A DNA stretch of 64,000 nucleotides from an archaeon (GCA_018696395.1 JABHQR010000011.1:56482-120481), one strand, 5' to 3'. Numbered from the stretch's first letter, positions 1-51,216 are shown. Notes: a model not told the origin generated them from the letters alone. Program-made: numbers and translations.

Positions 1-29
1 TAAATGAAAAATCACGAGGAATGATATAA

Positions 30-821
30 ATGCCAAGAAATGTAGTTACACCTGGAGTATTAGAGGTTGAAGATAAACCTTTAGATGGTCAAAATAATGA
101 TGATAGTTCTGGAACTGAACCTCAGCTTGGTTCTGGTTTAGAACAAGATGTTGATAGTTTAGTAAGTGATGATGTCAGTGAACTTGCTGATGAAGCAATT
201 GGGGAATGTTTTCAGAATTATTTAAGTACTTTTTTCTTTAACCTTGATGGTAATTTGTCCCCTATTGCCGGATTTATGTTTCCTAAATTATTAGAAATTT
301 CACCTTATTTAAAAAGTACTGGAAGAAATCCTTGTTCAATTAAATATAATTTGTCAGACAAAATTAATGTTGATTTAGCTAGAAAATTATTAGTTCTCTC
401 TTTAGGAGATTATGTTAAAAATCTTGATTTTTATGATGAAGTTGCAATAATTACTGATCCAAAACAATTATCTGAATATGTTTCTGAATTTGGTGCATTA
501 ATTAATCATATTAATCAAGATAAAAATGTGAGGGCTCGTATTCCTGTTTATGCTGTTGCAATGAATATGCCTAAGAAATATAGAGATTTAGTTGTATTGT
601 CAATAAAAGAAGATGTTGTAAATACTAATAATGTATTTCTTGAAGCTGATAATATAGGTAAAGATACTTTTTTACATAATATGGTGCCAAATTTAGGTAA
701 GATTGTTCATACAGCTGAAAAATATGATGTGGCTAAAGATAGAAAATTTCCAATAATGCCAATTATAAAATCATTGAATGAAGCAAGTGACAGATATATG
801 TCTACTTGGAATATCAAATAA
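30..821 (+). CDS. Hypothetical protein, N-terminally tagged paralog family (member 1)
   Basis: 263-aa ORF with GAGGA SD at 16-20. N-terminus VVTPGVLEVED followed by an acidic linker. Segment ECFQNYLSTFFFNLDGNL aligns with ECFSRVLSTYIISTDRNL of 2795..3700. Confidence 0.8.
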   Translation: MPRNVVTPGVLEVEDKPLDGQNNDDSSGTEPQLGSGLEQDVDSLVSDDVSELADEAIGECFQNYLSTFFFNLDGNLSPIAGFMFPKLLEISPYLKSTGRNPCSIKYNLSDKINVDLARKLLVLSLGDYVKNLDFYDEVAIITDPKQLSEYVSEFGALINHINQDKNVRARIPVYAVAMNMPKKYRDLVVLSIKEDVVNTNNVFLEADNIGKDTFLHNMVPNLGKIVHTAEKYDVAKDRKFPIMPIIKSLNEASDRYMSTWNIK

Positions 822-842
822 ATATTAATAGAGGATAAAAAA

Positions 843-2717
843 ATGTCAATACAATCAAAAACAATATCAAAAACTGAACAAGATCATTTGTTAACACAAT
901 TATTAAGGAATACACCTGGAAGTAAAGATACTGAGAAAGAAGAAATATTACATTCAGCAATGTTATTATCTTTCTACGCTGCGGCAAAGAAAGTTGTAAA
1001 AACTAGTATTTTATCTGCACCTTTTTACAGTATGAAATATGATCACGAGGTTAACAATTTAGAATTTAAAGTTTTAGGTGGCTCAACCACTGCTCCAAAA
1101 AAGAAAGGGGAATATGTGCTGGATGGGTTAGATATGATTTTTGCATGTCATAATCGAGACGTGCCTTTAATTTTACAAGGTGATACTGGTAAAGGTAAAA
1201 CTATTACTACTGAAGCTTATTTGAAAACAATTTTACCTGAAGAAAGTGTAATTATCATGAGTCTTAGTATGGATGATTTTTCTGACAGTCCAAGTGACCC
1301 ATTCAAAACAGATTCGTTTGGAGAAAATCAAGCTGGTATTCCTAAAAGAGTTATTGATTGGGAAAAGATGAGAACAATTGCAGCAGAGTATATTGATGAA
1401 TTTAATTTAGGTAACACTAATGAACTATTACAATTAACTTATGCGAGAATAATGGTTTCTCGTGAAAGAGGATGTGCAGGTATCCCTGTGCCAGAAGTAA
1501 CTTTGCAAGGAGCTAACTATCATGAAAAAAGTAATTTGAAAAGGTTATGGGTATCTGGTTCACAAAACCCACCAAAATCTCAAGATGAACAATTTACTGG
1601 GATAGAACTTAGTGCTTCCATGAAAAATAGAGTATTATTATTAGAATATCCAGGTATTTTACAAAGTGTAGCAGAAACTATGTGGTTAAAAGAATCATTA
1701 AATGGCCATCATAAAGATTTTTTAAAACAGTTTTGTAAAAATTATCAGAAACTTACTGGTCAAAATATTGATCAAGATGCTTTGAAAAAGGAATGGCTAA
1801 GCGTTTATGCTTACACCATGGATTCAAGTAGGACAGAAAAAGCTATTATAACTTCAAGTTTAGAATTTGGTGGATATTTAATGTTAGCTTTATCAGGTAA
1901 CATTGGTAAACTTTATGAAGGAGAAAAAGAAGTTGTGCGTGGTTGTAGTGAAAGATTAGGTAGTTTAGTAAATAACTTTAATTTAAGTAATAAAGTTGAT
2001 GATGGTTCTCAAGAAGTTAAGAACGTTAAGCAAATTTTATCTTCATTCAATAAAGATCTTACTGAAAGAGATGATCGTGCAATTAAAGATTTAGCAGATT
2101 TAATTGCAACTCAAAAAGCTTTAAAGAATGCTTATGCAGTGAGAAGAACTAATCCTAGTGGTGTATTACAAACTTATTTGAATGATTCAGGTTATATCAC
2201 TATTGAAGATGTAGCAGCTGCAACAACTCTGTTAGCAAGAAATAAGCAAAGAGATAGTACTAATGATCCATTAAATGTTGTTAATTCTATCTTGAAAACT
2301 TATACCAGGTTAGTTGATGACTTGGCAGATAAAATGAAAATTAAAGGTTACACCAGTTTTAGAACAGATAATCCTAATATTGGACTAAAATATTTCATAT
2401 ATACTACCTCTTTGATGGACTCAAAAAACACTGATGAAATAGTTAGAAAAATTGATCAAGGTGTTGGAAGACTTAAAAGAATCACTACTGGTTCAGAATT
2501 TGGAAAAGTAATTGTTGCTAGGACAGTAGCAGATTTAGCAGTATGTGCATCTTTCTTGAAAGATTATGAATCAGAAGTTAATCAGTATATCAAAGAATCT
2601 AGTGGAAATGAAATGGAACTAAGAGGAAAAATTCAATCTCTTTACGAACAAGAGTCTGGGGATGACCCTGATTTTGATCCATTGTATGAACACAGGTTAA
2701 CTAGAATCTTATTATAA
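843..2717 (+). CDS. MoxR-like AAA+ ATPase with long helical C-terminal extension
   Basis: Walker A GDTGKGKT, Walker B EYIDEFN, sensor-1 GSQNPP and an Arg-finger-like LSASMKNRV, in the order typical of MoxR-family AAA+ proteins. GAGGA SD at 831-835. Confidence 0.8.
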   Translation: MSIQSKTISKTEQDHLLTQLLRNTPGSKDTEKEEILHSAMLLSFYAAAKKVVKTSILSAPFYSMKYDHEVNNLEFKVLGGSTTAPKKKGEYVLDGLDMIFACHNRDVPLILQGDTGKGKTITTEAYLKTILPEESVIIMSLSMDDFSDSPSDPFKTDSFGENQAGIPKRVIDWEKMRTIAAEYIDEFNLGNTNELLQLTYARIMVSRERGCAGIPVPEVTLQGANYHEKSNLKRLWVSGSQNPPKSQDEQFTGIELSASMKNRVLLLEYPGILQSVAETMWLKESLNGHHKDFLKQFCKNYQKLTGQNIDQDALKKEWLSVYAYTMDSSRTEKAIITSSLEFGGYLMLALSGNIGKLYEGEKEVVRGCSERLGSLVNNFNLSNKVDDGSQEVKNVKQILSSFNKDLTERDDRAIKDLADLIATQKALKNAYAVRRTNPSGVLQTYLNDSGYITIEDVAAATTLLARNKQRDSTNDPLNVVNSILKTYTRLVDDLADKMKIKGYTSFRTDNPNIGLKYFIYTTSLMDSKNTDEIVRKIDQGVGRLKRITTGSEFGKVIVARTVADLAVCASFLKDYESEVNQYIKESSGNEMELRGKIQSLYEQESGDDPDFDPLYEHRLTRILL

Positions 2718-2794
2718 TTTTGCTTATGATTTTAGAAGCAATTGATTATGTATTAATTATGTGATAAATCAAAATAAATAAAATAATATAAAAA

Positions 2795-3700
2795 ATGGCA
2801 AAAATAATTCAACCAAAAACACTGGAACTTGAAGAACAAGTTCAAGGAGAAGATCCAACTAAATCAGATGCAGATGTTTCTGTTGATGGTATTGTGGGAA
2901 ATACAGATGTGAATTCTTTCAACACTGATGTTAAAGCAGAATGTTTTAGTAGAGTTTTAAGCACTTATATTATATCTACTGATCGTAATTTATTAAATAA
3001 CTATTCTAATGAAGATTTAAAAGCAGTATCTAAATATTTGACTTATGGTAATAGATTAACTTTATCATTTAAAGAATTAGACCGAGACTCGTTTATTGAT
3101 TTAGTTAATTTAGTGGACAAAGATTTAGGTGAATTATTAAGATTAACTAACTTAAAAGAATTATTCCCTGAAGAAGGAATAAGGTTGGATGGAACTACTA
3201 GAACTCAATCAAGAAATTCAGTATGTCTGACTGCATTTAATAATATTGAGACTACTTATGGTAGATTTCTCCGTGTTTCTGGAAGAGAAGTAATAATTCC
3301 AGATGTTCATGCACTTCCTTTATTCTTAACATCTGATAGAAGTGAATTACTTGCCAGTTTTTTGAAACATCAAGCAGGAGGTTCTGTTAGTAAAGTTAAT
3401 TCAATTGGTAATAGTATAGTTAAAATTCAACGTAGGGATGGCTCATATAAAGAATTTGGTCAAAAATTACCTAGTGTATATGATATTTTAAACCCTAAGG
3501 CAGTCTTAGATTATATTAAATATAAAAATGATAAGCCTGAAGATCTTGATTTTAAAGGATTAGCTGAAGAATTGCATGATATTAATCAACTATATGTTAG
3601 TAGTGCTTTAGGTTGGGATGATAATAGTGATGTTATTGTTGATAAAGATAAATTGACTGATGGGTTATTAGTTATTTACAAGAATGCAAATAAAGAGTAA
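2795..3700 (+). CDS. Hypothetical protein, N-terminally tagged paralog family (member 2)
   Basis: 301 aa, N-terminus MAKIIQPKTLELEEQVQGE. Clear paralog of 5365..6255 (LDRDSFIDLVNL..TNLKELFP vs LDRDDFLDLVEL..TNLKTLFP). Confidence 0.85.
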   Translation: MAKIIQPKTLELEEQVQGEDPTKSDADVSVDGIVGNTDVNSFNTDVKAECFSRVLSTYIISTDRNLLNNYSNEDLKAVSKYLTYGNRLTLSFKELDRDSFIDLVNLVDKDLGELLRLTNLKELFPEEGIRLDGTTRTQSRNSVCLTAFNNIETTYGRFLRVSGREVIIPDVHALPLFLTSDRSELLASFLKHQAGGSVSKVNSIGNSIVKIQRRDGSYKEFGQKLPSVYDILNPKAVLDYIKYKNDKPEDLDFKGLAEELHDINQLYVSSALGWDDNSDVIVDKDKLTDGLLVIYKNANKE

Positions 3701-3735
3701 TGATTAAACTAAATTAAAAATAAAAATACACAAAA

Positions 3736-5277
3736 ATGGTAAGCGTAATAACACCAGGAACTTTGGAAATTGAAGAACAAGTGCCAGAAGAAGAAGTTAT
3801 TCTAGAAGATAAAGTAATTGACTTTCTTAATTCAGAACAACATCAGTTACTTGATAGAGAAAAACTTATTGATTTTCATAAACTTCCTGTTATCAAAGCA
3901 TTTTATAATGCTAACAAAAGAGTAAGTAAAAATAGTACTTTTTGTTCAAGATTAGAAGATCATATCACTGAAGCAGTTAAATTGTATGATTTATTAGATC
4001 GTGGTCAAAAAGAAAATTTAGGAATTTTAACATCTTTGTACACAGAACTTAAATTTGGTCGTAATGCAGATCAGGTGTTACATTTAAAAAATCTTGACTT
4101 TTTGAATGATCTGGGTTTAGCTGGTAAAGATTATTTACTTAACAATTTAACAAATACAATCATTGAATATGTTGATTGTGAGGGTGGATCGAACATATTA
4201 TCTAATTGTAATGGTGTAATAATTGGTAAAGTCAGTTGTGAACATGTTGACTTTTTTGGTTCAAATTCTAATAATTTAAAAGTTTATGAAATTGATCACA
4301 GTGGAAGTAATTTTGGTGCCACTAGTAATAACTTATTAGTACAGTACATTAAAATGGCCGGATGTAGTTTTGGTTTCAGTAGTAAAAATTGTAAAGTTGA
4401 TGAAGTTGATATTACTGATAGTGGGTTTGCTGTTAAGAGTAAAGATTTTCATCTTACTAGTGCTAAAAAAGTAGGGATGAATTTTGGAACCAATTCAACA
4501 AATTTAAATTTTGTAAAAATAGGCGATGTTGGAGATCATTTTGGTTTAAGTTCATTAAATTTATCCGGAATAGAAATTACTGGTAAAGTTGGTACTGGTT
4601 TTGGTAGTGAGAGTAATGGTTTAACTGTTGATAAAATCAATGAAGTTGGTGACAGGTTTGGTTCTCTTTCTAAAACAATGACTATTGGTAGTATAAGTAA
4701 GGCACATTCTTCTTTAGGTATAGATAGTGAAGATTTGTCAATAGGTTATGTTGGAATAGCTTTAGAAAATTTTGGGAGAGAATCAAGATACTTGAAAGTT
4801 AAAAATATTGGGCTGGTTTTATCTGATAGATTTGGGGAAAAAAGTCATAATATGGAAATAGGAAGAGTAGGTGAATTTCTTCTGTACAAAAATGGAACTT
4901 TTGGTGGTTCTGCAGTAGGCATGTATGTTTTCAAAATTGATAAAATGAGTATATATAATCATAATGCAAATAATGCCTCTGTTGATTTCCGAAATTATGA
5001 AACTATTCTAAAAAATGGAAAATCAATTATTAGGTCCCCTTTTGAAATAGAAGAGATTGAATTTTTGTTTAGTGGGCAACATTCATTGAATAAATCAAAG
5101 ACAGTTGGGCCAAATGATTATGCATTTAGGGTTAAAGTTGAAAGTGAATATAAAATATTCACCGATCGAAAGGCAAACGAATGTTTGCCCCAGTTAGGAG
5201 AAAAATTTGGTTATGCTGAATATGATAAAACAATGAACTTGTTAAATGTATCAGTGGGTGATCCTGATGAATTATAA
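3736..5277 (+). CDS. Beta-helix repeat protein (GXGXG/FwdC-like 19-aa repeats) with the shared N-terminal tag
   Basis: About 11 tandem 19-20-aa repeats FGxxSxNLxVxxIxxVGxx. N-terminus MVSVITPGTLEIEEQV. Confidence 0.75.
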   Translation: MVSVITPGTLEIEEQVPEEEVILEDKVIDFLNSEQHQLLDREKLIDFHKLPVIKAFYNANKRVSKNSTFCSRLEDHITEAVKLYDLLDRGQKENLGILTSLYTELKFGRNADQVLHLKNLDFLNDLGLAGKDYLLNNLTNTIIEYVDCEGGSNILSNCNGVIIGKVSCEHVDFFGSNSNNLKVYEIDHSGSNFGATSNNLLVQYIKMAGCSFGFSSKNCKVDEVDITDSGFAVKSKDFHLTSAKKVGMNFGTNSTNLNFVKIGDVGDHFGLSSLNLSGIEITGKVGTGFGSESNGLTVDKINEVGDRFGSLSKTMTIGSISKAHSSLGIDSEDLSIGYVGIALENFGRESRYLKVKNIGLVLSDRFGEKSHNMEIGRVGEFLLYKNGTFGGSAVGMYVFKIDKMSIYNHNANNASVDFRNYETILKNGKSIIRSPFEIEEIEFLFSGQHSLNKSKTVGPNDYAFRVKVESEYKIFTDRKANECLPQLGEKFGYAEYDKTMNLLNVSVGDPDEL

Positions 5278-5364
5278 TCAAGTGGTATGGTGTGATGTTA
5301 AAAAAATAATTAGAATATAAAATAAACAAAATAAAAATAAAAATTAAAATAAAGGTAAATAAAA

Positions 5365-6255
5365 ATGGCAAAAGTAATACAACCAAAAACACCAGAAATA
5401 GAAGGGCCAGTTCAAGGAGAACAAGGAGATCTGTCTGATATAAGTGATGATGATAGAATTGTTGTAGCTAATAGTGAGTTTGAACTTCATTGTATTGGTA
5501 AGATGATTCAAGCCCATAGTAAAACTTTGAGAAAGGAATATGAGTTAAATCGTGGCGAGTCAATGTGTCTTGCAAAATATGTTGGTTTCAACGATAAGAT
5601 GGAATTATGTGCTTCAGATTTGGATAGGGATGATTTTTTAGATCTTGTTGAATTGGCTGATTCTAATTTAGGAAATATAATTAAAAATACTAATCTAAAA
5701 ACTTTGTTTCCAGATGTAATTAATGTAGAAATAGGCGAACCAATTCCACCAGATAATAGATTTTATCATAAAGCTGTAAATGCATACAAAGAAAAGTTTG
5801 GAAATGTATTAAAAAGATCTAAAGGTAGTTTAATCATTCCAGATATGTACTGTGTCCCTCTATTTTTTCCTGATGGTATGGGTCAATTATTTATAGAATA
5901 TCTTGGGTATATGGGGACTGATAAACCAAAAACTTACAATGGTGGAGACCCCATGTTTTTTGTTGCAAGTGATTTTCATGGAAATAAATACTTAGGATCA
6001 AATAATTTTTGGAGTGGCGTAAGTTTATTTTGCCCTGATAAGGTTTTAAACTTAATAAGTCAGTTAGATTCTAAATCAGAAGAGTTTGATTTAGTTGGTT
6101 TAATGGAGAAGTATGGTCAGTTCGAATCAACTTATCAGAAAGAGATTAAACAAAAAGATGGTACTGGGTTACAATTTGTTGACCTCACTAATTTAACTCA
6201 AAATTTACATGTAATGTATCAATCTAGGGTAGAGAGTCTTACAAAGAAAAGCTAA
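5365..6255 (+). CDS. Hypothetical protein, N-terminally tagged paralog family (member 3)
   Basis: 296 aa, N-terminus MAKVIQPKTPEIEGPVQGE. Paralog of 2795..3700 (IIPDMYCVPLFF vs IIPDVHALPLFL). Confidence 0.85.
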   Translation: MAKVIQPKTPEIEGPVQGEQGDLSDISDDDRIVVANSEFELHCIGKMIQAHSKTLRKEYELNRGESMCLAKYVGFNDKMELCASDLDRDDFLDLVELADSNLGNIIKNTNLKTLFPDVINVEIGEPIPPDNRFYHKAVNAYKEKFGNVLKRSKGSLIIPDMYCVPLFFPDGMGQLFIEYLGYMGTDKPKTYNGGDPMFFVASDFHGNKYLGSNNFWSGVSLFCPDKVLNLISQLDSKSEEFDLVGLMEKYGQFESTYQKEIKQKDGTGLQFVDLTNLTQNLHVMYQSRVESLTKKS

Positions 6256-6364
6256 ACATTTTCTTTTTAATTTTTATAACTCAAATTAAAATAAATTGGA
6301 AATAAAGTAAACAAAATAAAAACAATAAAAATACAATCTTGAGAAAATAAGCAAAACCAAAAAA

Positions 6365-8620
6365 ATGACTGCAATCGTAACAACTACATTGGAAGATGCC
6401 ATCAGAGGATGGGAAAGGATAGTCAAAGTAGAATGTCCACTGTTTCAAATGCCAGTAGTTACTGTTGATCCTGATCCAAACTCAAAATCGTTATGGTCAT
6501 TTGCAACAGATTGTAGTCAAGTGATGGCTAATTTGTATAAACCAGTAGAAATTGATAAAAAATTTGAAACTATTGTTGCTAAATTGTACCAAACTGCGTA
6601 TGGTAATCAAGCTAATACTACTGCTCAATCTTTAATAAGTTCAATATTTTCTAAAAAGAAAAACAATGATGATGAATTTAAAAGAACTTTATCTTTTCAT
6701 AACAGTTTATCTTTGTTAATCCATGAACTGTTTCATCCAAGATATATGCCTGATAGTACTAAAAGAATTGATGAAGAAACTAATGAAGTAATTTTAGGTG
6801 ATAAAGAGCTAATTCATAAAGCGATTTATGAAGGTATTAAAGAAGCTTTACCAACGGATTCTGAAAAAGATTTACTTACTAAAACCCGAAATGTAGAAAA
6901 TGCTGTATGGGATTTTTGTATTGACACATTTCAATATTATTTTATATCTCAAAATAAAGATTTGGCAAGAACTTTGTCTAGGGAATTGAAAAAGTCAGGT
7001 TACCAAATTGATGGGAAAGAAATCGGACATTTTCCAGAAGGAGTAATACCTATTTTTGATGTAGTAAGTTATTCAGATCAAGATAAGCTTGATAAAAGTG
7101 TAATTGGATTAAATAGATATACATATTCATTATTGTTTTGTGGAGATTTAGATACAAGAAAAAACTTGTTAAATTATTTCGGTGATAAAATTAGAAAAGG
7201 TGGAGTGCACAATATTGAAAATTTAGTTTCCAGTTCATTAAAAGGAATAATCTCTAAAATTGATAACGATACTTTACTAGAAAAAGGAATTGTTATGAAA
7301 AAGTATCAATATTCAGTTGATCAAATTTTAGCTGACCAATTATCTCAAAATTATGATAATCAATATCTTGTTGAAACCATGACTTCTTTGTTTATGGACA
7401 AAAAAACAAGGTATGATGCTATTAAAGGTTTTATCAAACCATTAGCACATTTAATTACAGTACAAAATTATGAACAAAGGGGTGGCGGTTCTGGTCAAGG
7501 ACAGGGTCAAGGTCAACCCGGACAACAACAACCTGGACAAGGTCAGGGACAGGGTCAAGGGCAGCAAGGTGATCAACCAGGACAACAACCAAGTCAAGGT
7601 GATGGTGGAAACAGTTCAGGTCCATCAGATTTAGGTGATGTACTTGATGCGATTATGAATGGAATGGATCAGAATCAGCAAAATCAGTTATTGAATGGTT
7701 TAGCAGCAGGTGGTGGCCAAGGTGGTAATCCTAATTCAGTAGAATTGCAAATGTTGGGCAGAGATAAGTATTACAAATTAAACTCTCCTGATGTTTCAAT
7801 ATCTTCACCTGATGAAGAACTGAAAACTTTTGATCAAGGTAAAATTAAGACTTGGGAAAAGCACAGATCTATCAGGGTGCCTGCAAACGAACTTCACAAA
7901 CATCATAAAATGATAGAAGTTGGATTAAGAAATGGTTTACCTGTACTAATACCTTTAGTAAAAGGAAAAGTTTTTGTTGTAAACTATTTCAAAAAGGTTG
8001 AAACTCACTTAGAATCATACTGTTTTCAAAGTAGAGGGATGGACATTGCAGATAATTTAATTTTTATCAATGACTCTTCTGGAAGTATGGGTGGTGGTAA
8101 ACCTGGAGGTGGTTCAAGTTGGGACGGTTTAATGCATGTTGAGTATGGTGTTATGAAAACTTTGTATCAAGCATTACAACAAAATCCTAAACCAGTTAGC
8201 GCTTGGGTTGGAAATTTTTCTAATAGTACATATTTAACTGGCCCACACGATTTTAAACAGTTTTATGAATCAGCAAAAAGTGATGGCAAAAGAAATTTAT
8301 TAATTCCTCAAGGTGGTGTGACCAATCTTAATACTAGAATATTTGATATGATTAAACCAAAATTAAGAGATGGTAGAACTGTTTGGAATTTTATCACTGA
8401 TGGTGGAATCTCTAATTCAGGTGCAGTTTATCAGGCAATTGAAAGTTTGACTAGGCAAGAAAATCATTGTTTCTTATACTTTGATATGTTTTGTAGTAGT
8501 TCATTAGGTGGACAATTGAAACAATTAAGTTCACAAAGAGAAAATGTAAGATACTTTTCAGTTAGAAACATGCAAGAAATTCTTAAAGGTAACATTGATG
8601 TTTTGATTAAGTATAAATAG
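6365..8620 (+). CDS. Putative metallopeptidase (HEXXH) + G/Q linker + VWA domain protein
   Basis: HELFH at 6722-6736, a Gly/Gln-rich linker, MIDAS DSSGS at 8072-8086, then a GGVT threonine and FITDG. Confidence 0.85.
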   Translation: MTAIVTTTLEDAIRGWERIVKVECPLFQMPVVTVDPDPNSKSLWSFATDCSQVMANLYKPVEIDKKFETIVAKLYQTAYGNQANTTAQSLISSIFSKKKNNDDEFKRTLSFHNSLSLLIHELFHPRYMPDSTKRIDEETNEVILGDKELIHKAIYEGIKEALPTDSEKDLLTKTRNVENAVWDFCIDTFQYYFISQNKDLARTLSRELKKSGYQIDGKEIGHFPEGVIPIFDVVSYSDQDKLDKSVIGLNRYTYSLLFCGDLDTRKNLLNYFGDKIRKGGVHNIENLVSSSLKGIISKIDNDTLLEKGIVMKKYQYSVDQILADQLSQNYDNQYLVETMTSLFMDKKTRYDAIKGFIKPLAHLITVQNYEQRGGGSGQGQGQGQPGQQQPGQGQGQGQGQQGDQPGQQPSQGDGGNSSGPSDLGDVLDAIMNGMDQNQQNQLLNGLAAGGGQGGNPNSVELQMLGRDKYYKLNSPDVSISSPDEELKTFDQGKIKTWEKHRSIRVPANELHKHHKMIEVGLRNGLPVLIPLVKGKVFVVNYFKKVETHLESYCFQSRGMDIADNLIFINDSSGSMGGGKPGGGSSWDGLMHVEYGVMKTLYQALQQNPKPVSAWVGNFSNSTYLTGPHDFKQFYESAKSDGKRNLLIPQGGVTNLNTRIFDMIKPKLRDGRTVWNFITDGGISNSGAVYQAIESLTRQENHCFLYFDMFCSSSLGGQLKQLSSQRENVRYFSVRNMQEILKGNIDVLIKYK
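7479..7625 (+). repeat. Low-complexity Gly/Gln coding repeat (GQGQGQ/GQQQP)
   Basis: Imperfect repeats of ggtcaagg/acagggtcaagg encoding GGGSGQGQGQGQPGQQQPGQGQGQGQGQQGDQPGQQPSQG. Confidence 0.85.
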
Positions 8621-8661
8621 TTTTTAATGATTAAATTTTTAATCAGTTCTAAAAAAGAAAA

Positions 8662-8777
8662 TGTGGGCGGCAGGGCTCGAACCTGCGTAGGCACTAAGCC
8701 AATAGGTATCTTCAAGTTGATAATGATTTATCAGTCTTGCCTAAGCCTATCCCGTTTGACCACTCCGGCACGCCCAC
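8662..8777 (-). tRNA. tRNA-Leu (anticodon TAG) with 32-nt intron at 37/38 (8708-8739)
   Basis: Acceptor stem GTGGGCG/CGCCCAC with discriminator A, D arm CCGGAGTGGTCAAACGG, anticodon stem ATAGG/CCTAT with loop CT-TAG-G|A, long variable arm, T arm GCAGG-TTCGAGC-CCTGC. Intron forms a relaxed bulge-helix-bulge. No encoded CCA. Confidence 0.95.
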
Positions 8778-8926
8778 ATTAATTATTCTGAATTTCATCA
8801 CTTATTTTTATATCTTTTGTTTTAAATTAAGTTAATTTGAACAATTTTATGTTTAAGATAAACAATACCCAAATCTTCACTCTAACCCCATAATATTTAT
8901 AAATTGGATTGTGTGTGAGAAATTCT

Positions 8927-9730
8927 ATGATAAACAAAAAAGTTAGTTTAGCATTAATCTTAACAGTTGTGTTAAGTTTGACTTTACTGTTAGTTGCTTG
9001 TAATGATACAGAAAGTATTGAAATCCCAACTTTTGATTACAGTGATTGTTCAGTATTAGAAGGTTCTGTAAAGGATGATTGTTACTTGACAAAATTACAA
9101 TGTAGTGAAATCAATTCAAGTTCAATTAAAGATTCATGTATCATTGAATTAGCATTTGAAGCTAAAAATATAGAAGTTTGCGAATTGGTACAGAGTGATT
9201 CTTCTGTAGATTATTGTTATTATAAATTTGCAATTGAAGATAATAATGCAGAGTTATGTGGAAATATTGATAGTGAATATTGGTTAAATAATTGTTATAA
9301 CACTTATGCATTAAACAATTCTGATGCGGATTATTGTAGTCTAGTAGTAAGGGGCGATCAGCAAACTGACTGTTATTATGATGTTGCAACTGATTCAAAT
9401 GAGGTAGGAGTTTGTACTTATTTGACTAACACAACAGATTTAGACAGATGTTTAATGATCATTTCAAAAGAGATTGCAGAAACTGATGGTTGTTATATGA
9501 TGAACTCTGGGCTTAATAAAGATGTATGTTTACTAAAAGTTGCTAAATTGGCTGATGACCAAGAAATTTGTGATGATATCTATATTGATGTAATTGAAGA
9601 AGATTGTAACAATTATTTTGATAGTATGGGTCAAGAAGAAGTTGTGGACGAAACAGAAACTGTAGAAGATGCTACTGAAGAAACTGACAGTGAACAAGAA
9701 CCAGAATTAACAGTTGAAGAAGAATTATAA
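8927..9730 (+). CDS. Secreted/lipoprotein-like Cys-rich repeat protein
   Basis: ATG 8927 lies 23 nt after TTTATAAA (8896-8903). Signal peptide ends LLLVAC. About 7 repeats of ~26 aa (C..I......D.CY...A......C) and an acidic tail. Confidence 0.8.
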   Translation: MINKKVSLALILTVVLSLTLLLVACNDTESIEIPTFDYSDCSVLEGSVKDDCYLTKLQCSEINSSSIKDSCIIELAFEAKNIEVCELVQSDSSVDYCYYKFAIEDNNAELCGNIDSEYWLNNCYNTYALNNSDADYCSLVVRGDQQTDCYYDVATDSNEVGVCTYLTNTTDLDRCLMIISKEIAETDGCYMMNSGLNKDVCLLKVAKLADDQEICDDIYIDVIEEDCNNYFDSMGQEEVVDETETVEDATEETDSEQEPELTVEEEL

Positions 9731-9821
9731 TTGATTTATTCTTATTCATTTTTCATTTTATTTTTCTTATCTCTAATTTAATATTTTTTCACATAAACTT
9801 ATATATTCTAACCTTTGTTTT

Positions 9822-10976
9822 ATGATTATCATGAAAAATTTAATCAATTTAAAGGATAAGGATAATAAAGATTTTAACAAGTTAGGTTTGAAAAAAAATA
9901 TTCTTCAAGTTTTATCTAGATTGAATTATAAAAAACCCCTTGATGTGCAGGACATTATTGTACCATTAGCATTAAAAGGGAAGAATGTGGTATTTACTTC
10001 TAAAACTGGAAGTGGAAAAACTTTAGCGTATATGTTAGGTTATTTAGGAAAAATCAATAAGAAACAATCTCTTCAGATGATTGTTCTTGTACCAACAAGA
10101 GAACTTTGTGTTCAAGTAGGTAAGGAGGTTAAAACAGTTTGTGATCCTCTTGATATTAATGTTGGGATGCTTTATGGTGGAAGAAATGTTGCTGGTGATT
10201 ATCGAACATTAATGAAAAAGAATCAAATACTTGTTGGGACCCCTGGAAGACTTTTATTGCATGTAAATGAAAAGAAAATTCGGGTTGGTGAAGTAAAATA
10301 TTTAGTATATGATGAGTCTGACCAAATGTTTGATCATGGTTTTTATCGGTCCTGTGCTTACTTAAAACAAAGGGTGAGTAAAGATGCACAAATAATATTA
10401 TCTTCAGCTACAATAACTGAAAAAGTTAAAGATTTTATTAACCAGGAAATTGTTGATTATGAATTATTAGAAATTGGGTATTTAATTCCAAAAAATATTT
10501 TACAAGAAAAAATATATTGTGATAAATTAGAAAAAAATTCTATCTTGTTAAATCTATTTTCAAAAACTAAATTTAAACGTGCAATGATTTTTTGTAATAC
10601 TAAACTTAAATCGTACAATATTTCAGAATTTTTTCAAACTAACGGTTTTAATGCTAAATCTCTTAGTAGTGATCTTAACCAAGATGAAAGGTTGAAACAT
10701 TTAAATTTATTCAAAGAGGGTAAAATTAAACTTTTAGTTACAACTGATGTTGCAGCTCGTGGGATTCATATTGAAGATGTTGATCTTGTAATTAATTATG
10801 ATGTCCCTACTAAAAATGAGTTTTATATTCATCGTGTTGGGAGGACTGGTAGAGTTGATAAGAACGGTTATTCATTAACATTAATTTGTCCTGAAGATGT
10901 CAAAAGGTTCTATAGGATTGAATATTTGTATGATCTAGAAATTGTTGAAATTGATAAAGGTGATTTTGAAGATTAA
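9822..10976 (+). CDS. DEAD-box RNA helicase
   Basis: KTGSGKT, PTREL, TPGR, motif II DESD, SAT, ARGIHI, HRVGRTGR. The true start may be ATG 9831. Confidence 0.95.
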   Translation: MIIMKNLINLKDKDNKDFNKLGLKKNILQVLSRLNYKKPLDVQDIIVPLALKGKNVVFTSKTGSGKTLAYMLGYLGKINKKQSLQMIVLVPTRELCVQVGKEVKTVCDPLDINVGMLYGGRNVAGDYRTLMKKNQILVGTPGRLLLHVNEKKIRVGEVKYLVYDESDQMFDHGFYRSCAYLKQRVSKDAQIILSSATITEKVKDFINQEIVDYELLEIGYLIPKNILQEKIYCDKLEKNSILLNLFSKTKFKRAMIFCNTKLKSYNISEFFQTNGFNAKSLSSDLNQDERLKHLNLFKEGKIKLLVTTDVAARGIHIEDVDLVINYDVPTKNEFYIHRVGRTGRVDKNGYSLTLICPEDVKRFYRIEYLYDLEIVEIDKGDFED

Positions 10977-10986
10977 AAAATATTTT

Positions 10987-11955
10987 TTAATCTTTGAATC
11001 CATAAGGATAAAATTTCTTTACAAATTCATCTGAAAATGCTAATTCAGTTAATTCTTCCATCTTTTCATTTAATGGTAAAATATAATTTTCTCCTCTTAT
11101 AACTCCTTGATTTATTTTAATAAATCCTAATGTTCTTCTTGGATGTGATAGCTCTTTAATTAAATAATCTTTTTCATCTACAGGGAATTTTTGTTCTCTG
11201 AATCTTTTTACACCTTCATTGAAATAACCTATCTGTGAAGCAGTAATAGCATCCCAATAATCATTAATCTCTTTGTTAGCTTTTTTGATTAAATTCATAC
11301 ATGCAGTTAAGTTAACACCTCTAGTTGCGATATCTTTTCTTTTTTCCTCTCCATTTTGATTAATATCCTTTTCTGTAACTAAATAAAACGGTTGTCCATA
11401 AAAAGGGTTGAGGTTAAATTTAATGGCATCTCTAGAAAACATTAATGAAAAAAGTGCATCTGAATATTGTTCAATCAGTTGATCTCCAATGATTAATTTC
11501 TCTGTTCCAGCTTTGTGACTAGATTTCCAATTTTGGGGTGGGGCTGGTGAAAATGTACCTTCGTTATGTTGATCCCTAGTCCAAGAGTGAGGTATTTTTA
11601 ATTTATGTTGATCGAGGGATCCATGATTATGGCATTTTACTATTCTGTAATCTTCTTGATTGTTACTATTAATATTAATATTAATATTAATATAAATATG
11701 GTGTTTTTTACCTTTTTCTAAATTGAATACTCCTTGAGAAGATAAATGTCCACCTGAAAGAAACAAGATTTTTTTGGTTATTTTTCCAGGTATGCCTGAA
11801 CCCATACCACTCCAAGAAAAGTTTTGTAACAATACTGGTGTTCCTGGTTCAATGATGTTATCAATAGTTTGCATAACTTCAGAATAATTCTTTCCATTAA
11901 TATCTATTTTTTTATTTTGAAGTTCTAGTTCAATATTGTGTGGTATGATATCCAT
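10987..11955 (-). CDS. Hypothetical protein
   Basis: 322-aa ORF with GAGG upstream; no motif recognised. Confidence 0.7.
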   Translation of the reverse strand: MDIIPHNIELELQNKKIDINGKNYSEVMQTIDNIIEPGTPVLLQNFSWSGMGSGIPGKITKKILFLSGGHLSSQGVFNLEKGKKHHIYININININSNNQEDYRIVKCHNHGSLDQHKLKIPHSWTRDQHNEGTFSPAPPQNWKSSHKAGTEKLIIGDQLIEQYSDALFSLMFSRDAIKFNLNPFYGQPFYLVTEKDINQNGEEKRKDIATRGVNLTACMNLIKKANKEINDYWDAITASQIGYFNEGVKRFREQKFPVDEKDYLIKELSHPRRTLGFIKINQGVIRGENYILPLNEKMEELTELAFSDEFVKKFYPYGFKD

Positions 11956-11984
11956 ATTTTAACCTCTGATTTTATGTGTGTTAA

Positions 11985-12827
11985 TTATAAATCTAACGTG
12001 TACCTACTTAAATTTCTATATTTTGGTTTTTGATTTAAAATTGTAATTAACTTTAATTCTTCAGTTCTAAATTCTACAAACACTGGCCTATCACGAGATT
12101 TAGCAACTATTAATTCATTTTCATAACTACGTTCTTGATTTTTAAAATTATATTTATTTACAACTTCAAAAGTTTCATCAAAACCACTGTGATAAAATAC
12201 TGTTTGATCAAAAGGATCTAAATTATGCCATTTGGGTGTAAAAGCTGCCTTTTCACCACACCTTCTATCAATATCTTCATTGAATTTGATTAAACCTCTT
12301 TCAAGAGGGGAACAATCATTATACATTGAAATTACTTTATCTTCATTTGAAACTTTTACTAAATTTGTAACTCTTCTATTATCCATGTCATTGATTTTAT
12401 TAGTTCCTTGAACTCTGAATAAAATGTATGAACTAGGACCACTAGTTCCATATCTAGGTAAATATGATCCAATTGTTTCAAGTAATTTTTGATTGGTTGA
12501 ACTTTTAAATTTGAAAACAGTTCCAATCTCAGAAAATTCATTCCATTGATTTTCCCAAATCTGATCTTGTTTTTTGACTTGACTCATTACATAATCAGAA
12601 AGAGCTTTGTGTTCTGTAATTCTTGTTCTTTGTTTTAAAATTTCAGCAGCTTGATCTCTAGTGGAATATAATTGTGCTGTGGATTTTTTAACAACATCTT
12701 TAGGGATTCTTCCATGTGATGCATCATGTCCAATTCTCCACGCTAATCCTTCAGTTTCATAAATTAAATTAGCTAAATTCATATTGTTAAGTTCTTCTAA
12801 GTTAGTTTTATCGGTTATGCTTGTCAT
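11985..12827 (-). CDS. Hypothetical protein
   Basis: 280-aa ORF starting 5 nt after the radical SAM gene. Confidence 0.7.
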   Translation of the reverse strand: MTSITDKTNLEELNNMNLANLIYETEGLAWRIGHDASHGRIPKDVVKKSTAQLYSTRDQAAEILKQRTRITEHKALSDYVMSQVKKQDQIWENQWNEFSEIGTVFKFKSSTNQKLLETIGSYLPRYGTSGPSSYILFRVQGTNKINDMDNRRVTNLVKVSNEDKVISMYNDCSPLERGLIKFNEDIDRRCGEKAAFTPKWHNLDPFDQTVFYHSGFDETFEVVNKYNFKNQERSYENELIVAKSRDRPVFVEFRTEELKLITILNQKPKYRNLSRYTLDL

Positions 12828-12832
12828 TTTTT

Positions 12833-14026
12833 TTATTTCACCTTTAATTTAACATCTGATCTAGTTACTTCTTTGTAACTTACACCATACTTTTCCTTCA
12901 AATAATTGTTTATTATTTCACAACTTTGTATGTAATTAGAGTTCCATGAAATTTGACGGTCAACAATGAACTTTACTTCATCAACACCTTTTCTTTGGGC
13001 TTCAAAAGTTAATCTTTTTGAATTTGGACCATACAATTTTAAAGGACCTATATGAATTCTTAATGAAATATTATCAATTATGTTATCTACATTTTCTAGG
13101 TAGTTTCTTAATTTTTTTGGGTCAGGATTATACATCTGTGGGAATATATCAAATCCAGAGTTAACAAATCTTTTAAGGGAATACATCTGATCTTCAATAC
13201 TAGTTACTGATTGTACATTCTGTTGTAAATTACAATCATCAACTCCTTTTAAGGCGGTAAGAACTTTGATTGGATATTCTGCTAATTTTTCTAATGTGAA
13301 CTTTTCAAATATCCTTTCACTTTCAAAATAATCTACTAAAGTTGCGGTTGAAAGGTTACTATCTAATTGCCCTACAAAATCTAAATTTCTCTTTTTAATT
13401 TCTCGCCATAAATTTAAAATCCAGTCTAGGACAATTGTGGGTTCTCCACCAGAAGTTCTTAATACCTTTAAATTAGTATCATGACCTAATCTTTGGTATT
13501 GGCTAACTATCTTTTTTCTAGCACTTAGCATACTATCAATAGTTTCATTAATCCCTAAGTTAACTTTACCTTGTCCTGGTAATCCATTATTATTTTTGTC
13601 ATCAACAAAACAATACCAACATCCACCTGATGAATTTCCTGTATGAAAATTACATCCTGCTATCTGTAATGTGAAAGGTGCATTATAAAAATTAACTTTT
13701 TTCATATTAAACTGACGTTCATGTTTGTACCATAAAGGGAAATCAAATTCTTGTTTTCTTAAAAATTTTTCAATTTCATTTTCTGTTTTTTTTGTAATGT
13801 CAAAAAATGGTGTTTCATACTTTTCAGAAGCTAATGGGTCAATTTCTTTAACATTTACCTTTGTTCTAAAAGGATAGTCTGTAGTACCAACTATTGGCAT
13901 TAAATCAATTACCTTTGATGTGTCTTCACCTTGTAATGTTCCTCTAAAATCTGCAACAAGAATTTTATCATTTTGAATTAAACTTTCTCTTAACATTAAT
14001 GCTCTGTCAATAGGATCAGTTTTCAT
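12833..14026 (-). CDS. Radical SAM superfamily protein with atypical CX10CX2C motif
   Basis: LQIAGCNFHTGNSSGGCWYCF, LRTSGGEPT (GGE motif), LDSN and ALKG strands. Confidence 0.8.
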   Translation of the reverse strand: MKTDPIDRALMLRESLIQNDKILVADFRGTLQGEDTSKVIDLMPIVGTTDYPFRTKVNVKEIDPLASEKYETPFFDITKKTENEIEKFLRKQEFDFPLWYKHERQFNMKKVNFYNAPFTLQIAGCNFHTGNSSGGCWYCFVDDKNNNGLPGQGKVNLGINETIDSMLSARKKIVSQYQRLGHDTNLKVLRTSGGEPTIVLDWILNLWREIKKRNLDFVGQLDSNLSTATLVDYFESERIFEKFTLEKLAEYPIKVLTALKGVDDCNLQQNVQSVTSIEDQMYSLKRFVNSGFDIFPQMYNPDPKKLRNYLENVDNIIDNISLRIHIGPLKLYGPNSKRLTFEAQRKGVDEVKFIVDRQISWNSNYIQSCEIINNYLKEKYGVSYKEVTRSDVKLKVK

Positions 14027-16757: not shown

Positions 16758-17636
16758 ATGCAAAATTTAAAAGATTTTTTTGATGGGTTAAGCTATGAAG
16801 TGGCTAGATTGTCAATGGGTGATAGTTATGGTATACTTAATGGGGTAATTCAAGATACTGAAATACCTGAAAAATATTCAACTGTATTAGATTTAGCTAA
16901 GGGTTTAGTTGGTGCATTAGGTGGTGTTGGTGATGAAGATAGTAATGATCTTATGACTCAAATCCAAACTTATTGTACTGATAAAGAGGATGCATTAGGA
17001 AATAGAAGATCCATAAAAAATAGGGAAGTTAATATCATTATTAATCAGTATAATGGTACATTAGATGTGATAATGCCTGTTAAAGAAGATGATTTAGAAA
17101 GTAATGGTTTGCCAAATAAACTTTATGAGTCTGTTGAAAAAGTTTGTACAAAATTAGAAGCTGAATATCAATGTGTATGTGACCATAAAATTTGGGAGGG
17201 ATATGTTCTATTTTCAGTGCCAAATGTTGTTGATAGAAGTGATTTAGCTAAGAGAATTATGGATAATGCACCTAAACAATTAGGTGGAACAAATGGGGAC
17301 GGTCGAAGAATTGCTTATTTAAGAATTGCAGACAATTTTGCGTTTAAATATAAAGGAAATTCTGTAAATGAACTACAAGATTTAGGGTCAGTTGTTGAAA
17401 TAGAACCTGTTGGTAGGTCAAGGAATGATCTAAATGAGAAAAACATTAGTCAATCTTATAGTTCTTTGCCTAAAAAAGAAAAAATTAGGTTAAGAAAAGA
17501 GATTAAAGTTTTGTTTGAAAATGGTATTGACAAAAATGTTATCAGACAAACATATTCACAAGTTCCAATACAAGCAATTGCTGGTGTAGAAGCTGCAATG
17601 ACTCTCGCAAATAAGAAAAAAGATCAATCAAGTTAA
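16758..17636 (+). CDS. Hypothetical protein with shared operon domain and C-terminal HTH-like module
   Basis: LDVIMPVK..LPNKLY..EGYVLF..NAPKQL resembles segments in the next two ORFs. C-terminal LPKKEK..LFENG..IRQTY..QAIAG resembles the C-terminus of 21411..23414. Confidence 0.75.
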   Translation: MQNLKDFFDGLSYEVARLSMGDSYGILNGVIQDTEIPEKYSTVLDLAKGLVGALGGVGDEDSNDLMTQIQTYCTDKEDALGNRRSIKNREVNIIINQYNGTLDVIMPVKEDDLESNGLPNKLYESVEKVCTKLEAEYQCVCDHKIWEGYVLFSVPNVVDRSDLAKRIMDNAPKQLGGTNGDGRRIAYLRIADNFAFKYKGNSVNELQDLGSVVEIEPVGRSRNDLNEKNISQSYSSLPKKEKIRLRKEIKVLFENGIDKNVIRQTYSQVPIQAIAGVEAAMTLANKKKDQSS

Positions 17637-17708
17637 TATTTTTTATTTTTTATTATCTTAACTAATCTATTAAAAAAATTAATTATATGATTTTTCATGA
17701 GGATAAAA

Positions 17709-18575: not shown

Positions 18576-18601
18576 AATTAATACCAAGGAGAAAATTCAA
18601 A

Positions 18602-20161: not shown

Positions 20162-20179
20162 ATAAAATAAGGATATAAA

Positions 20180-47081: not shown

Positions 47082-47144
47082 TGTTAAAAAGACAAGAAAT
47101 TTATGTTTAAATAAAAAAATTAAAATTTTAAAAAAAATGATAAG

Positions 47145-50750: not shown

Positions 50751-51216
50751 AAAGATGAGTAAAATCAGTTGGTGTTGGAAACAGAAAAATGGGTTTGAAA
50801 TAATTGAACCTAACACTAACCTTAGTAATGCTTATCTAATCGAAGCAAGAACAACATTGAAAAAAATAGTACAAGATGGTAATCGAACTAATTACGATAA
50901 ATGGGACCTTATCATGTCTTATTATTCATGTTACAATGCTTTATATTCAATATTGATGAAAGCTGGAATTAAATGTGAATTACATTCTTGTACGATTGAA
51001 ATGATGAAATTTATTGAGTCATTTACTGATGAAGATTATGAATTTTTAATGAATTTAAAAGATAAAAGGATTGATGTACAATATTATTTGAAAGATTACA
51101 AAATTAATGAAAATCAGATTAAAAAAGTTAAATTATTTGTCCATAAGTGTGAAGTTATATTGAACAAAACTGATTTGTCTAAACTAAGAGGTGAACTTGA
51201 TGGTACAAAAAAATAG
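50743..51216 (+). CDS. HEPN-domain protein
   Basis: YYSCYNAL..CELHSCTI..KRIDVQYY (R-x4-Y variant). Start at ATG 50743 or 50755. Confidence 0.8.
   Translation: MNKKMSKISWCWKQKNGFEIIEPNTNLSNAYLIEARTTLKKIVQDGNRTNYDKWDLIMSYYSCYNALYSILMKAGIKCELHSCTIEMMKFIESFTDEDYEFLMNLKDKRIDVQYYLKDYKINENQIKKVKLFVHKCEVILNKTDLSKLRGELDGTKK

Follow-up and report, generated by a model that had tools for sequence, protein, structure and literature searches.

A six-gene operon in a DPANN-type archaeon

The DNA analyzed here is a 64,000-nucleotide (nt) stretch of an archaeal genome (GCA_018696395.1 JABHQR010000011.1:56482-120481), hereafter the window, and positions 30-8620 of it hold the locus under study, a predicted AAA+ ATPase/VWA operon in which four further proteins begin with a similar N-terminal peptide, the putative tag. 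An earlier sequence-only reading of the window had proposed six co-oriented genes in this region, and these were indeed found as six plus-strand open reading frames (ORFs) separated by gaps of 21-109 nt. In order, they encode T1, a tagged accessory protein of 263 amino acids (aa) (30-821); an AAA_5/MoxR-like AAA+ ATPase of 624 aa (843-2717), assigned from motifs, hhalign, and Atlas; T2, a tagged accessory protein of 301 aa (2795-3700); BH, a tagged protein of 513 aa built on 19-20-residue repeats (3736-5277); T3, a tagged accessory protein of 296 aa (5365-6255); and a zincin-like HExxH/linker/VWA protein of 751 aa (6365-8620), assigned from alignments and AlphaFold2 (AF2) models. The four tagged genes were recognized by ORF calling and tag match, and BH also by its repeats.

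The sequence-only reading had left room for an extension of the locus to the left of the window. This was refuted by a phosphoribosyltransferase (PRTase)-like ORF in divergent orientation, which is the first gene met on the upstream side; the operon therefore begins at window position 30. Within the 16 kb to the left, the PRTase-like ORF is the nearest gene and is preceded by genes for a class I lysyl-tRNA synthetase (LysRS), an Sm-like protein, and SRP54; on the 3′ side follow a minus-strand tRNA gene, a gene for a Cys-rich protein, and one for a DEAD-box helicase. The operon is thus self-contained at 30-8620.

The genome to which the window belongs, that of a small marine archaeon, comprises 1.38 Mb on 24 contigs, with about 29% G+C. 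The archaeal genes upstream (LysRS, Sm-like, SRP54) indicate that the host is an archaeon, and the earlier assignment to a DPANN-type organism looks sound, given the archaeal housekeeping genes and the homologous loci in records labeled Nanoarchaeota, Woesearchaeota, and Pacearchaeota. The locus was also held not to be a named system, and no PADLOC, Pfam, or PHROG model contradicted this: none of the six proteins reaches the family thresholds of these collections, and PADLOC-DB 2.0 yielded only short partial matches in two of the six (PtuB, E 0.054; mad8, E 0.0052).

A putative tag on four proteins of the operon and on one unlinked protein

The N-terminal motif noticed on four of the genes was confirmed by a genome-wide pattern search. 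When the six-frame translation of the whole 1.38-Mb genome was scanned with a loose regular expression for the tag, six matches were obtained, five of which begin at the fourth or fifth residue of an ORF. These five are T1 (MPRNVVTPGVLEVED), T2 (MAKIIQPKTLELEEQVQGE), BH (MVSVITPGTLEIEEQVPEE), T3 (MAKVIQPKTPEIEGPVQGE), and one gene on contig C2. The tag is conserved to about residue 19, following the pattern M-x-K-[IV]-I-[QT]-P-[KG]-T-[LP]-E-[LI]-E-[EG]-[QP]-V-[QP]-[GE]-E, and the mean pairwise identity within the window was 0.43 for residues 1-14 versus 0.20 for the rest of the protein. An acidic linker follows, with 8-10 D+E versus 1-4 K+R in residues 15-50; in T1, the linker counts 10 D+E versus 1 K+R and leads into the globular domain of the T1 family. 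Tag codons differ between the genes at synonymous sites, and the DNA upstream of the tagged genes is unrelated, which argues that selection acts on the peptide.

Beyond the tag, the four proteins of the window belong to three sequence-unrelated families, namely, T1, T2/T3, and the BH repeat protein. Three paralogs of one family had been described in the sequence-only reading, but only T2 and T3 are paralogous (28% identity over 300 aa); T1 is a family of its own, since profile-profile comparison (hhalign) with T2/T3 gave a probability of 0.4 once tags and linkers had been removed. As for BH, 12 tandem repeats of 19-20 residues at about 166-400 (G-x-x-F-G-x-x-S-x-N-L-x-V) form a solenoid-like pattern, and the earlier term "beta-helix" appears a reasonable reading of them. 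A word-based search with T2 returned only T2 itself, and its Atlas score was 0.81, without a family.

The fifth tagged protein (MVRVITPKMPEIEE) has 256 aa and is encoded on the minus strand of contig C2 (L002, about 9218-9990), remote from any ATPase or VWA gene; by hhalign, it matches neither the T1 nor the T2/T3 family. Judged from these sequences, the tag is portable, being found on unrelated families and on the unlinked C2 gene. The neighbors of the latter (6100-13900) are same-strand ORFs for Cys-rich, apparently secreted proteins, several with N-terminal hydrophobic segments.

A divergent ATPase, probably AAA_5/MoxR-like

The ATPase displays a Walker A motif (GDTGKGKT), a Walker B motif (DEFN), and the segment SGSQNP, and the motifs G(D/E)TGxGKT, DE(L/I/F)N, and sensor-1 N-P are kept in all 13 aligned homologues. 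Its C-terminal half of about 300 aa is helical and has a conserved C-terminal Y-x-H-R motif. When compared by hhalign with an alignment of only three AAA_5 proteins from related genomes, the protein matched over residues 103-272 (probability 82.7, E 9.5e-6). In Atlas, which ranks language-model neighbors, all 10 of the nearest named clusters were AAA_5 or AAA_3, with scores of 0.93-0.94 and 176-186 features in common.

No Pfam AAA_5 or AAA_3 match was obtained at E ≤ 0.1, the only match being AAA_7 (dynein) at E 0.055; marginal matches were seen to NorQ (E 0.13, PDB profile search), mad8 (E 0.0052, PADLOC), and the "cobS-like" phrog_249 (E 0.0096), and a PHROG scan of all members of the ATPase alignment gave scattered chance-level matches only. 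The original assignment of the gene as MoxR-type AAA+ is therefore supported by hhalign and Atlas, though below Pfam thresholds, and we read it as a probable, divergent member of the AAA_5/MoxR-like class.

A putative metallopeptidase domain joined to a VWA domain

The last gene of the operon had been described as encoding an HEXXH motif, a G/Q linker, and a VWA domain, and each of these parts was recovered. Residues 1-373 form a zincin-like HExxH domain, those from about 374 to 420 a disordered linker rich in G and Q, and those from about 476 to 751 a VWA domain that includes a metal ion-dependent adhesion site (MIDAS); in many homologues the linker is acidic. AF2 modeled the whole protein with a predicted local distance difference test (pLDDT) value of 82.8 from a 17-sequence alignment and the N-terminal domain alone with a value of 92.3 from 22 sequences.

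The VWA fold is evident on the AF2 model. Structural comparison with VIA gave Z 16.3 against the collagen VI N2 domain (root mean square deviation [rmsd] 2.5, 168 aligned residues), and Foldseek matched the VWA part to integrin I domains with probability 1.00 (E 3.8e-4, TM 0.58 by target). At the sequence level, Pfam VWA_2 matched weakly in 4 of the 17 aligned proteins, with a best E of 0.0056. The MIDAS residues D570, S572, and D679 are invariant in 17/17; the Thr of the GGT segment is kept in most of the 17 rows and replaced in several, and the fifth position is S or T. By these residues the MIDAS motif is complete, and metal binding is predicted.

In the N-terminal domain, HELFH lies at residues 120-124, and H120, E121, H124, and D146 are invariant in 22/22 sequences. 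The AF2 model puts the HExxH within a helix (97-127) and D146 at the start of the next one, and D146 is the predicted third metal ligand from its spacing. The best VIA score was Z 6.1, obtained for ZMPSTE24 (rmsd 4.9, 151 aligned residues) and for DPP III (rmsd 4.8, 214 aligned residues), and at least 29 of the 50 listed rows are, by title, zinc metallopeptidases of many clans. Foldseek returned nothing at E ≤ 0.001 for this domain against either PDB or BFVD. Because metallopeptidases are enriched among the listed VIA rows and the HExxH and D146 are invariant, we read the domain as a very divergent zincin and a putative metallopeptidase.

Other searches with this protein were uninformative: the PDB-sequence profile search gave nothing meaningful, and PHROGs gave no family, with chance-level matches across the alignment members. 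A weak BFVD row pointed to HCTV-2 gp79; at an hhalign probability of 1.9, no relation is claimed. The protein's own N terminus (MTAIVTTTLEDA) was also considered as a tag, and the slight likeness, judged by eye, fails in other loci.

Relatives keep the core pair and carry tags of their own

The locus family is rare. Word-based searches among 5.8 billion proteins yielded 12 entries for the ATPase and 11 for the VWA protein, the query included in each case. With the VWA-protein profile, HMMER found 271 of 1.84 billion representatives at E ≤ 1e-3, 133 at E ≤ 1e-10, and 77 at E ≤ 1e-30, many of the matches being fragments and those below about rank 112 covering the VWA core only. Among 401 genomes sampled across the phylum, the same profile matched in 26 at E ≤ 1e-10, the window genome included, and in 17 of them the match went beyond the VWA core; the ATPase was present in 4 of 40 close relatives.

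In all, 27 further loci were collected (L008-L010, L011-L022, L054-L064, and L077, the last from IMG/VR; L053 is the same contig as L011; the loci of one matching genome, G409, are left aside). They come from DPANN-type archaea, their proviruses, and one viral contig, with a few bins labeled otherwise. The HExxH-VWA gene lies 3′ of the ATPase gene on the same strand in 25 of the 27, and in the remaining two (L020 and L022) the contig ends first. Between the two genes there are no others in 14 loci, one in 7, two in 3, and three in 1. A comparison of neighborhoods had been named beforehand as the test of whether a constant AAA+/peptidase-VWA core is accompanied by variable tagged genes, and this is the picture borne out by the 27 loci. 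The sequence-only reading was thus right in outline, and the arrangement is more general than could be seen from the window.

Within the clade of the window the gene order is kept, with one or more T1-family genes, the ATPase gene, the repeat-protein gene together with a T2/T3-family gene, and the VWA gene. The L011 gene upstream of the ATPase belongs to the T1 family (hhalign 99.7), T1 homologues occur among the tagged genes of L012, and BH orthologues sit between the ATPase and VWA genes in both L011 (30% identity) and L012 (25% identity).

Most of the further loci hold 1-14 accessory genes that have in common a locus-specific N-terminal tag. Three tagged genes were found in L011 (MAKVIQGEGAEVE), and 14, plus one cut by the contig end, in L012 (MAILIDGEMMEAE). 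L060 has three such genes upstream (M.VLKPGDIAFDP) and four downstream (M..VLKP..V.F), L054 has two (MKLLVE.DYT.FGDTP), and L059 likewise two (M.KVI...(D/E)L(D/E)F). One tagged gene each occurs in L056 and L057 (RI(I/V)QGGEL.L), and one each, with the same motif across all five loci, in L008, L015, L016, L017, and L019 (KVV.GG(D/E)LFFKDDI). The viral-type clade (L010, L020, L021, L058, L064, and L077) has 1-3 genes per locus with the motif M.(K/R)IIP...L.K...W.PGQ. The tag is kept within a locus and varies from one locus to another. Identity over residues 1-14 versus the rest of the protein was 0.73 versus 0.18 in L012 (14 genes), 0.60 versus 0.23 in L011, 0.86 versus 0.53 in L010, 0.90 versus 0.50 in L020, and 1.00 versus 0.38 in L021, and the tag was far better conserved than the remainder in six of the eight loci measured.

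These comparisons bear on the idea that the common N termini have no function and only reflect shared ancestry, or gene conversion between tandem copies, the accessory genes being passengers beside a generic MoxR-VWA pair. T2 and T3 are true paralogs, tandem arrays such as that of L012 would favor gene conversion, and in L013 and L014 the N termini are no better conserved than the rest, all of which fit such a history. However, the tag stands on families without detectable relation outside it and on the unlinked C2 gene, and the excess conservation in six of eight loci points the other way. With other tags, the same arrangement is found again in loci that share no more than 25-35% identity with the window in their core proteins, and the differences at synonymous sites and in the upstream DNA argue against recent conversion tracts. 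We consider this explanation, already disfavored, highly improbable.

Several features of the relatives were noted in passing. Proteins of about 590-750 aa that match only the C-terminal VWA core (profile positions about 540-700) appear in the HMMER results from about rank 113 down and in nine sampled genomes; 2 of 10 that were scanned had a VWA or VWA_2 match at E ≤ 0.001, and they may form a sister family with a different N-terminal domain. In L008 (3086-7028), L017 (3683-7961), and L019 (3426-8385), a conserved gene run lies 5′ of an adjacent ATPase-VWA pair. Read by eye, it encodes a small VWA-like protein, a HAM1-like NTP pyrophosphatase, a thymidylate-synthase-like protein, and a QueC-like PP-loop ATPase, a set that would fit a nucleotide or DNA-modification module carried by a mobile element. 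L012 and L016 are two contigs of one metagenome-assembled genome record (CAZWBB01), so that one bin holds two versions of the system, that of L012 with at least 14 MAILIDG-tagged genes and that of L016 of the adjacent-pair type. Paralogs with the N terminus M..(S/R)(D/T)I(Y/H)IPT.EEIAR are also present in L016, and the start of its ATPase ORF is similar (METSDIHIPTVEE); this could mean that the start was mis-called or that the ATPase is itself tagged.

Viral relatives and diversity-generating retroelements

One of the relatives, L010, is an integrated head-tail virus, with PHROG matches to a terminase (5.8e-47), a portal protein (2.3e-27), a major head protein (1.7e-24), and an integrase. L058 and the IMG/VR contig L077 agree with L010 in gene order, which is reverse transcriptase (RT), ATPase, tagged gene, VWA, tagged gene, and the gene map of L058 accordingly shows two tagged genes. 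The RT matches phrog_1423 at 9e-115 and is that of a diversity-generating retroelement (DGR). In L010, L058, and L077, the three viral-type loci whose contig spans the RT, both tagged genes, and DNA beyond, the 3′ ends of the tagged genes match a downstream template repeat (3/3 loci; 14962-15047 in L010). Mismatches fell at template adenines in 15/15, 21/21, 16/17, 12/12, 15/15, and 4/4 cases, or 83/84 in total, the 4/4 being from a 30-nt match. Template-repeat matches with such adenine mismatches indicate that the viral tagged proteins are the variable proteins of a DGR. The clients of the family thus appear to be diversifying, by tandem arrays of at least 14 tagged genes in L012 and as DGR targets in the viral loci.

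No RT was found in the genome of the window (tblastn with the viral RT, nothing at E ≤ 0.01); the tagged genes of the window are therefore not DGR targets, and a DGR in that genome was ruled out. In L010, the spacer between the RT and ATPase genes (8720-8834) contains two tandem 56-nt direct repeats of 71% identity. A scan of viral_contigs gave 28 pattern matches with the VWA alignment, none of them confirmed, and a single locus, L077, with the ATPase alignment; tblastn of both core proteins against 50,697 phage records gave nothing at E ≤ 1e-3.

The viral loci bring up an explanation in which the core pair would be a structural assembly chaperone with a maturation protease. The tag would then be a targeting peptide or pro-peptide on structural or fibre (receptor-binding) proteins, the ATPase-VWA pair would fold these proteins or assemble them into a particle, fibre, or appendage, and the zincin would remove the pro-peptide. 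The window copy would serve to build an attachment structure, as a cellular or domesticated form of the module. We hold this to be possible though rather unlikely. The module does lie among head-morphogenesis genes of integrated head-tail viruses (L010) and on the IMG/VR contig L077, and the hydrophobic-x-acidic pattern of the tag may resemble the short N-terminal capsid-targeting and cleavage motifs of T4 internal proteins. The viral tagged proteins are, moreover, DGR targets, and such targets in viruses are usually tail-fibre receptor-binding proteins, as is that of the virus ANMV-1 (PMC4372165); MoxR-vWA pairs have also been proposed to serve in the tail development of Acidianus two-tailed virus (ATV) and, with proteolytic processing, in the virion assembly of jumbo phages (PMC7824862).

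The window locus itself speaks against this explanation. It sits amid housekeeping genes (LysRS and PRTase-like upstream, DEAD-box helicase downstream); its composition is native, at the 59th percentile of tetranucleotide distance among 149 windows; a search of 3 kb upstream, together with the window's initial 900 nt, turned up no att-like repeat of more than 12 nt; and no capsid, portal, or tail gene was seen within 16 kb upstream and 4 kb downstream. The six proteins show no export signal, the similarity to the ATV proteins is confined to generic P-loop and VWA cores (hhalign 6.8 and 49.7), and the phage records returned no tblastn match. Targets of DPANN DGRs, for their part, have been reported as orphan genes (PMC4372165), and a full-text search of Paul et al. 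2015 gave no mention of an ATPase or VWA protein beside nanoarchaeal DGRs (PMC4372165).

Comparison with described MoxR-VWA systems

The closest published description found is that of the group 2.2 jumbo phages. There, a role in virion assembly, accompanied by proteolytic processing, has been suggested for a MoxR ATPase and a vWA co-chaperone with an N-terminal metallopeptidase (Iyer et al. 2021, Viruses 13:63, PMC7824862). This pair (by description, ASV44729.1 and ASV44728.2) is virus-borne and is likened to the core of the window by architecture, the two-gene architecture being the same; the passage describing it has no mention of tagged clients or of a DGR link (PMC7824862), and the window ATPase is about twice the usual MoxR length. 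The core architecture is thus not unprecedented.

A second viral pair, ORF618 and ORF892 of ATV, acts on a structural client in extracellular tail development. ORF618 is MoxR-like and, at 618 aa, near the window ATPase in length (624 aa), and ORF892 is large with a C-terminal VWA domain. By hhalign, however, ORF618 matches the window ATPase profile at a probability of 6.8 in the P-loop only, and ORF892 matches the window VWA profile at 49.7 in the VWA core only. The two ATV genes are not adjacent, and the ATV pair has no peptidase domain, unlike the window pair with its zincin-like one. The need for the ATV pair in tail development and its lack of a peptidase domain are described in PMC7824862, and the chaperone pair is cited also in PMC7159879.

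Among cellular systems, NorQ-NorD, CbbQ-CbbO, RavA-ViaA, CobS-CobT, and Rea1/midasin likewise combine an AAA_5-class ATPase with a VWA partner. The window VWA model superimposes on the Rea1 MIDAS domain with Z 14.6 (rmsd 3.4, 195 residues) and on the NorD VWA domain with Z 13.5 (rmsd 7.8, 217 residues), and sequence similarity to the cellular pairs is marginal (NorQ, E 0.13; phrog_249, E 0.0096). CobT and ChlD share the layout of the window VWA protein, with an N-terminal domain, an acidic or low-complexity linker, and a C-terminal VWA domain, and binding of an acidic client residue by the MIDAS is a known mode for Rea1 and CbbO. Each cellular pair serves one fixed client enzyme, in contrast to the set of tagged clients in the window family, and we know of no cellular MoxR-VWA pair that has an HExxH domain or a tagged client family. 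In general, MoxR ATPases work with VWA co-chaperones that capture a substrate peptide (PMC7159879).

The bacterial MoxR-vWA ternary systems of the VMAP, iSTAND, FtsH, and beta-propeller types also have a MoxR-vWA core, variable fast-evolving parts, and a patchy distribution (Kaur et al. 2020, eLife, PMC7159879), and in some versions a DGR occasionally diversifies the putative ligand-binding component, as in the viral loci here (Doré et al. 2024, PNAS, PMC10907252). In the ternary systems, the variable parts are fused domains or effector-associated domain (EAD) adaptors, whereas in the window they are separate small proteins with an N-terminal tag; ternary effectors lie C-terminal to the VWA domain, whereas the window peptidase lies N-terminal to it; and the hosts are multicellular bacteria, whereas the window family occurs in DPANN-type archaea and their viruses. 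No VMAP-C, VMAP-M, or iSTAND/STAND domain was found in the four accessory proteins of the window (Pfam, E ≤ 0.1) or in 10 from other loci (E ≤ 0.01), and a VMAP-M8 match in 1 of 17 VWA proteins (E 0.19) is at chance level. Of the earlier description as a ternary-type system in a DPANN archaeon, the DPANN-type host and the core with variable tagged partners stand, and the defining VMAP or iSTAND third component is missing.

The likeness to these systems raises the question of whether the locus could serve in intracellular conflict, as an immune or abortive-infection system akin to the MoxR-vWA ternary ones, in which sensors of invader molecules would dock by their tags, the ATPase would relay the signal, and the zincin would be the effector protease. 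Its distribution is suitably patchy (26/401 genomes at E ≤ 1e-10, 17 beyond the VWA core), its sensor-like paralogs are expanded and diversify fast, and no component has an export signal. In bacteria, an antigen-sensing role has been proposed for DGR-diversified proteins found beside MoxR ATPases and vWA proteins (PMC10907252), and the general logic of such systems has been laid out (PMC7159879). Yet Pfam and PADLOC scans revealed no VMAP, iSTAND, Trypco, TIR, caspase, or other hallmark domain; from PADLOC came no more than a weak match to mad8 (E 0.005); the viruses carry the module inside a structural gene block; and the zincin is N-terminal to the VWA domain, where ternary effectors are fused C-terminally (PMC7159879). 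On balance, a conflict system strikes us as quite unlikely.

The MoxR/metallopeptidase-vWA core architecture is thus known already in viruses. No description of the tag or of the DPANN module was found in the literature searched, Paul et al. 2017 and the supplementary files of PMC7159879, PMC7824862, and PMC10907252 aside.

Proposed function

We propose that the locus is a tag-directed client-handling machine, a reading in which we place about even confidence. The tag has a make-up of about 14-20 residues comprising a hydrophobic pair, a Gly/Pro turn, and alternating hydrophobic and acidic residues, followed by an acidic or Pro-rich linker and a globular domain. It would act as an address label read by the core of the same locus. 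The likeliest reader would be the MIDAS site of the VWA domain, which we favor because every tag presents acidic residues, set in a beta-hairpin-like pattern, and acidic side chains are what MIDAS sites bind in integrins and in known MoxR-VWA systems. Alternatively, the tag might lie as an extended strand in the substrate cleft of the zincin, where it or the linker could be cut. The bound client would then be remodeled or released by the ATPase, and the metalloprotease would probably cleave the tag or the linker. The clients would be interchangeable, fast-evolving binding proteins recruited to an ATP-driven VWA/metalloprotease machine, and those of the viral relatives are the variable proteins of the DGR. 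The most likely role would be the maturation, assembly, or deployment of partner-recognition proteins that a DPANN cell or virus directs at host cells or invaders. The sequence-only reading had cast the tagged proteins as clients, sensors, or subunits, any of which they may be. A complex prediction of the whole VWA protein with T2 residues 1-60 scored 0.00 in both runs, without controls, and speaks neither for nor against binding.

Several points count against a tag-directed machine. Gene starts in the relatives are approximate, having been set by a simple ORF caller. The first 14 residues diverge more than the remainder of the proteins in L013 (0.29 versus 0.41) and L014 (0.21 versus 0.30), and a common motif, T-I-x-P-D..GW..IL-G, is seen there only with an offset and by eye; no tag was seen in L055 or L018, the L009 contig ends just 5′ of the ATPase gene, and the start of the upstream gene in L061 is uncertain. 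None of 10 further accessory proteins matches Pfam. The zincin assignment has weak structural scores, the best Z of 6.1 lying below the tool's noise guide of about 8. Finally, hydropathy predicts no membrane segment for the six operon proteins (maximum 19-residue Kyte-Doolittle mean, 1.45), nor do they show an obvious signal peptide, so that a role at the surface would need an unknown export route.

A broader form of the proposal, which we consider unlikely but worth stating, is that DPANN archaea and head-tail viruses have an address-tag system in common. A locus-specific N-terminal peptide would commit any carrier, including unlinked and DGR-hypermutated proteins, to the MoxR-like ATPase/zincin-VWA machine, which would process these carriers and deploy them as a swappable repertoire of recognition or effector proteins for host contact. 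If true, this would be a new protein-targeting route in organisms that live attached to other cells.

DPANN archaea are tiny cells that need physical contact with a host, and how contact proteins are made and varied is largely unknown; the locus family gives orphan variable proteins a context, namely, a conserved core pair and a portable, locus-specific tag. Should the tag be a true targeting signal, the client repertoire of any such genome could be listed from sequence alone; the tag would be a testable biochemical handle, through binding to the MIDAS or the zincin cleft, ATP-dependent release, and cleavage; and chaperone-type MoxR-VWA pairs, viral assembly chaperones, and bacterial ternary conflict systems would be linked. 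With the viral loci, DGRs are also seen beside MoxR and vWA proteins in archaeal viruses, a link described before in multicellular bacteria.

Surroundings of the operon

The tRNA gene that forms the 3′ boundary of the operon lies outside the system, on the minus strand at 8662-8777 (Rfam RF00005, 44.7 bits, E 1.4e-8). It was missed by ARAGORN and by the whole-window Rfam gathering run, and the 44.7 bits were obtained when 321 bases only were searched. In other metagenomes, a depth peak of up to 595 at 8401-8800 and many short skips with anticodon-stem-like inserts at 8698-8755 had pointed to a tRNA at this place. The variable arm of the tRNA is long, an insert (an intron) of about 32-35 nt interrupts its anticodon region, and by a reading of its loop it is tRNA-Leu(UAG)-like. 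An integration island beside the tRNA gene was considered and dropped, there being no att-like repeat, an ordinary tetranucleotide composition, and no integrase. Logan contigs from four further marine runs that matched window positions 1-12000 were short, and the longest among those listed were identical to the window, so that they carry no information on variation in the tagged genes.

The remainder of the window carries housekeeping genes, among them those for MutS, an H+-pyrophosphatase, methionyl-tRNA synthetase (MetRS), and dihydroorotate dehydrogenase. Two runs of same-strand ORFs were noted there, one at 16758-23414 (292, 292, 519, 413, and 667 aa) and one at 44634-54237 (815, 1201, 177, 200, and 815 aa). 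Seven ORFs of these runs (all but the 177- and 200-aa ones) were without a Pfam family at E ≤ 0.001, and the 413-aa and 667-aa proteins of the first run have, by eye, similar helix-turn-helix-like starts.

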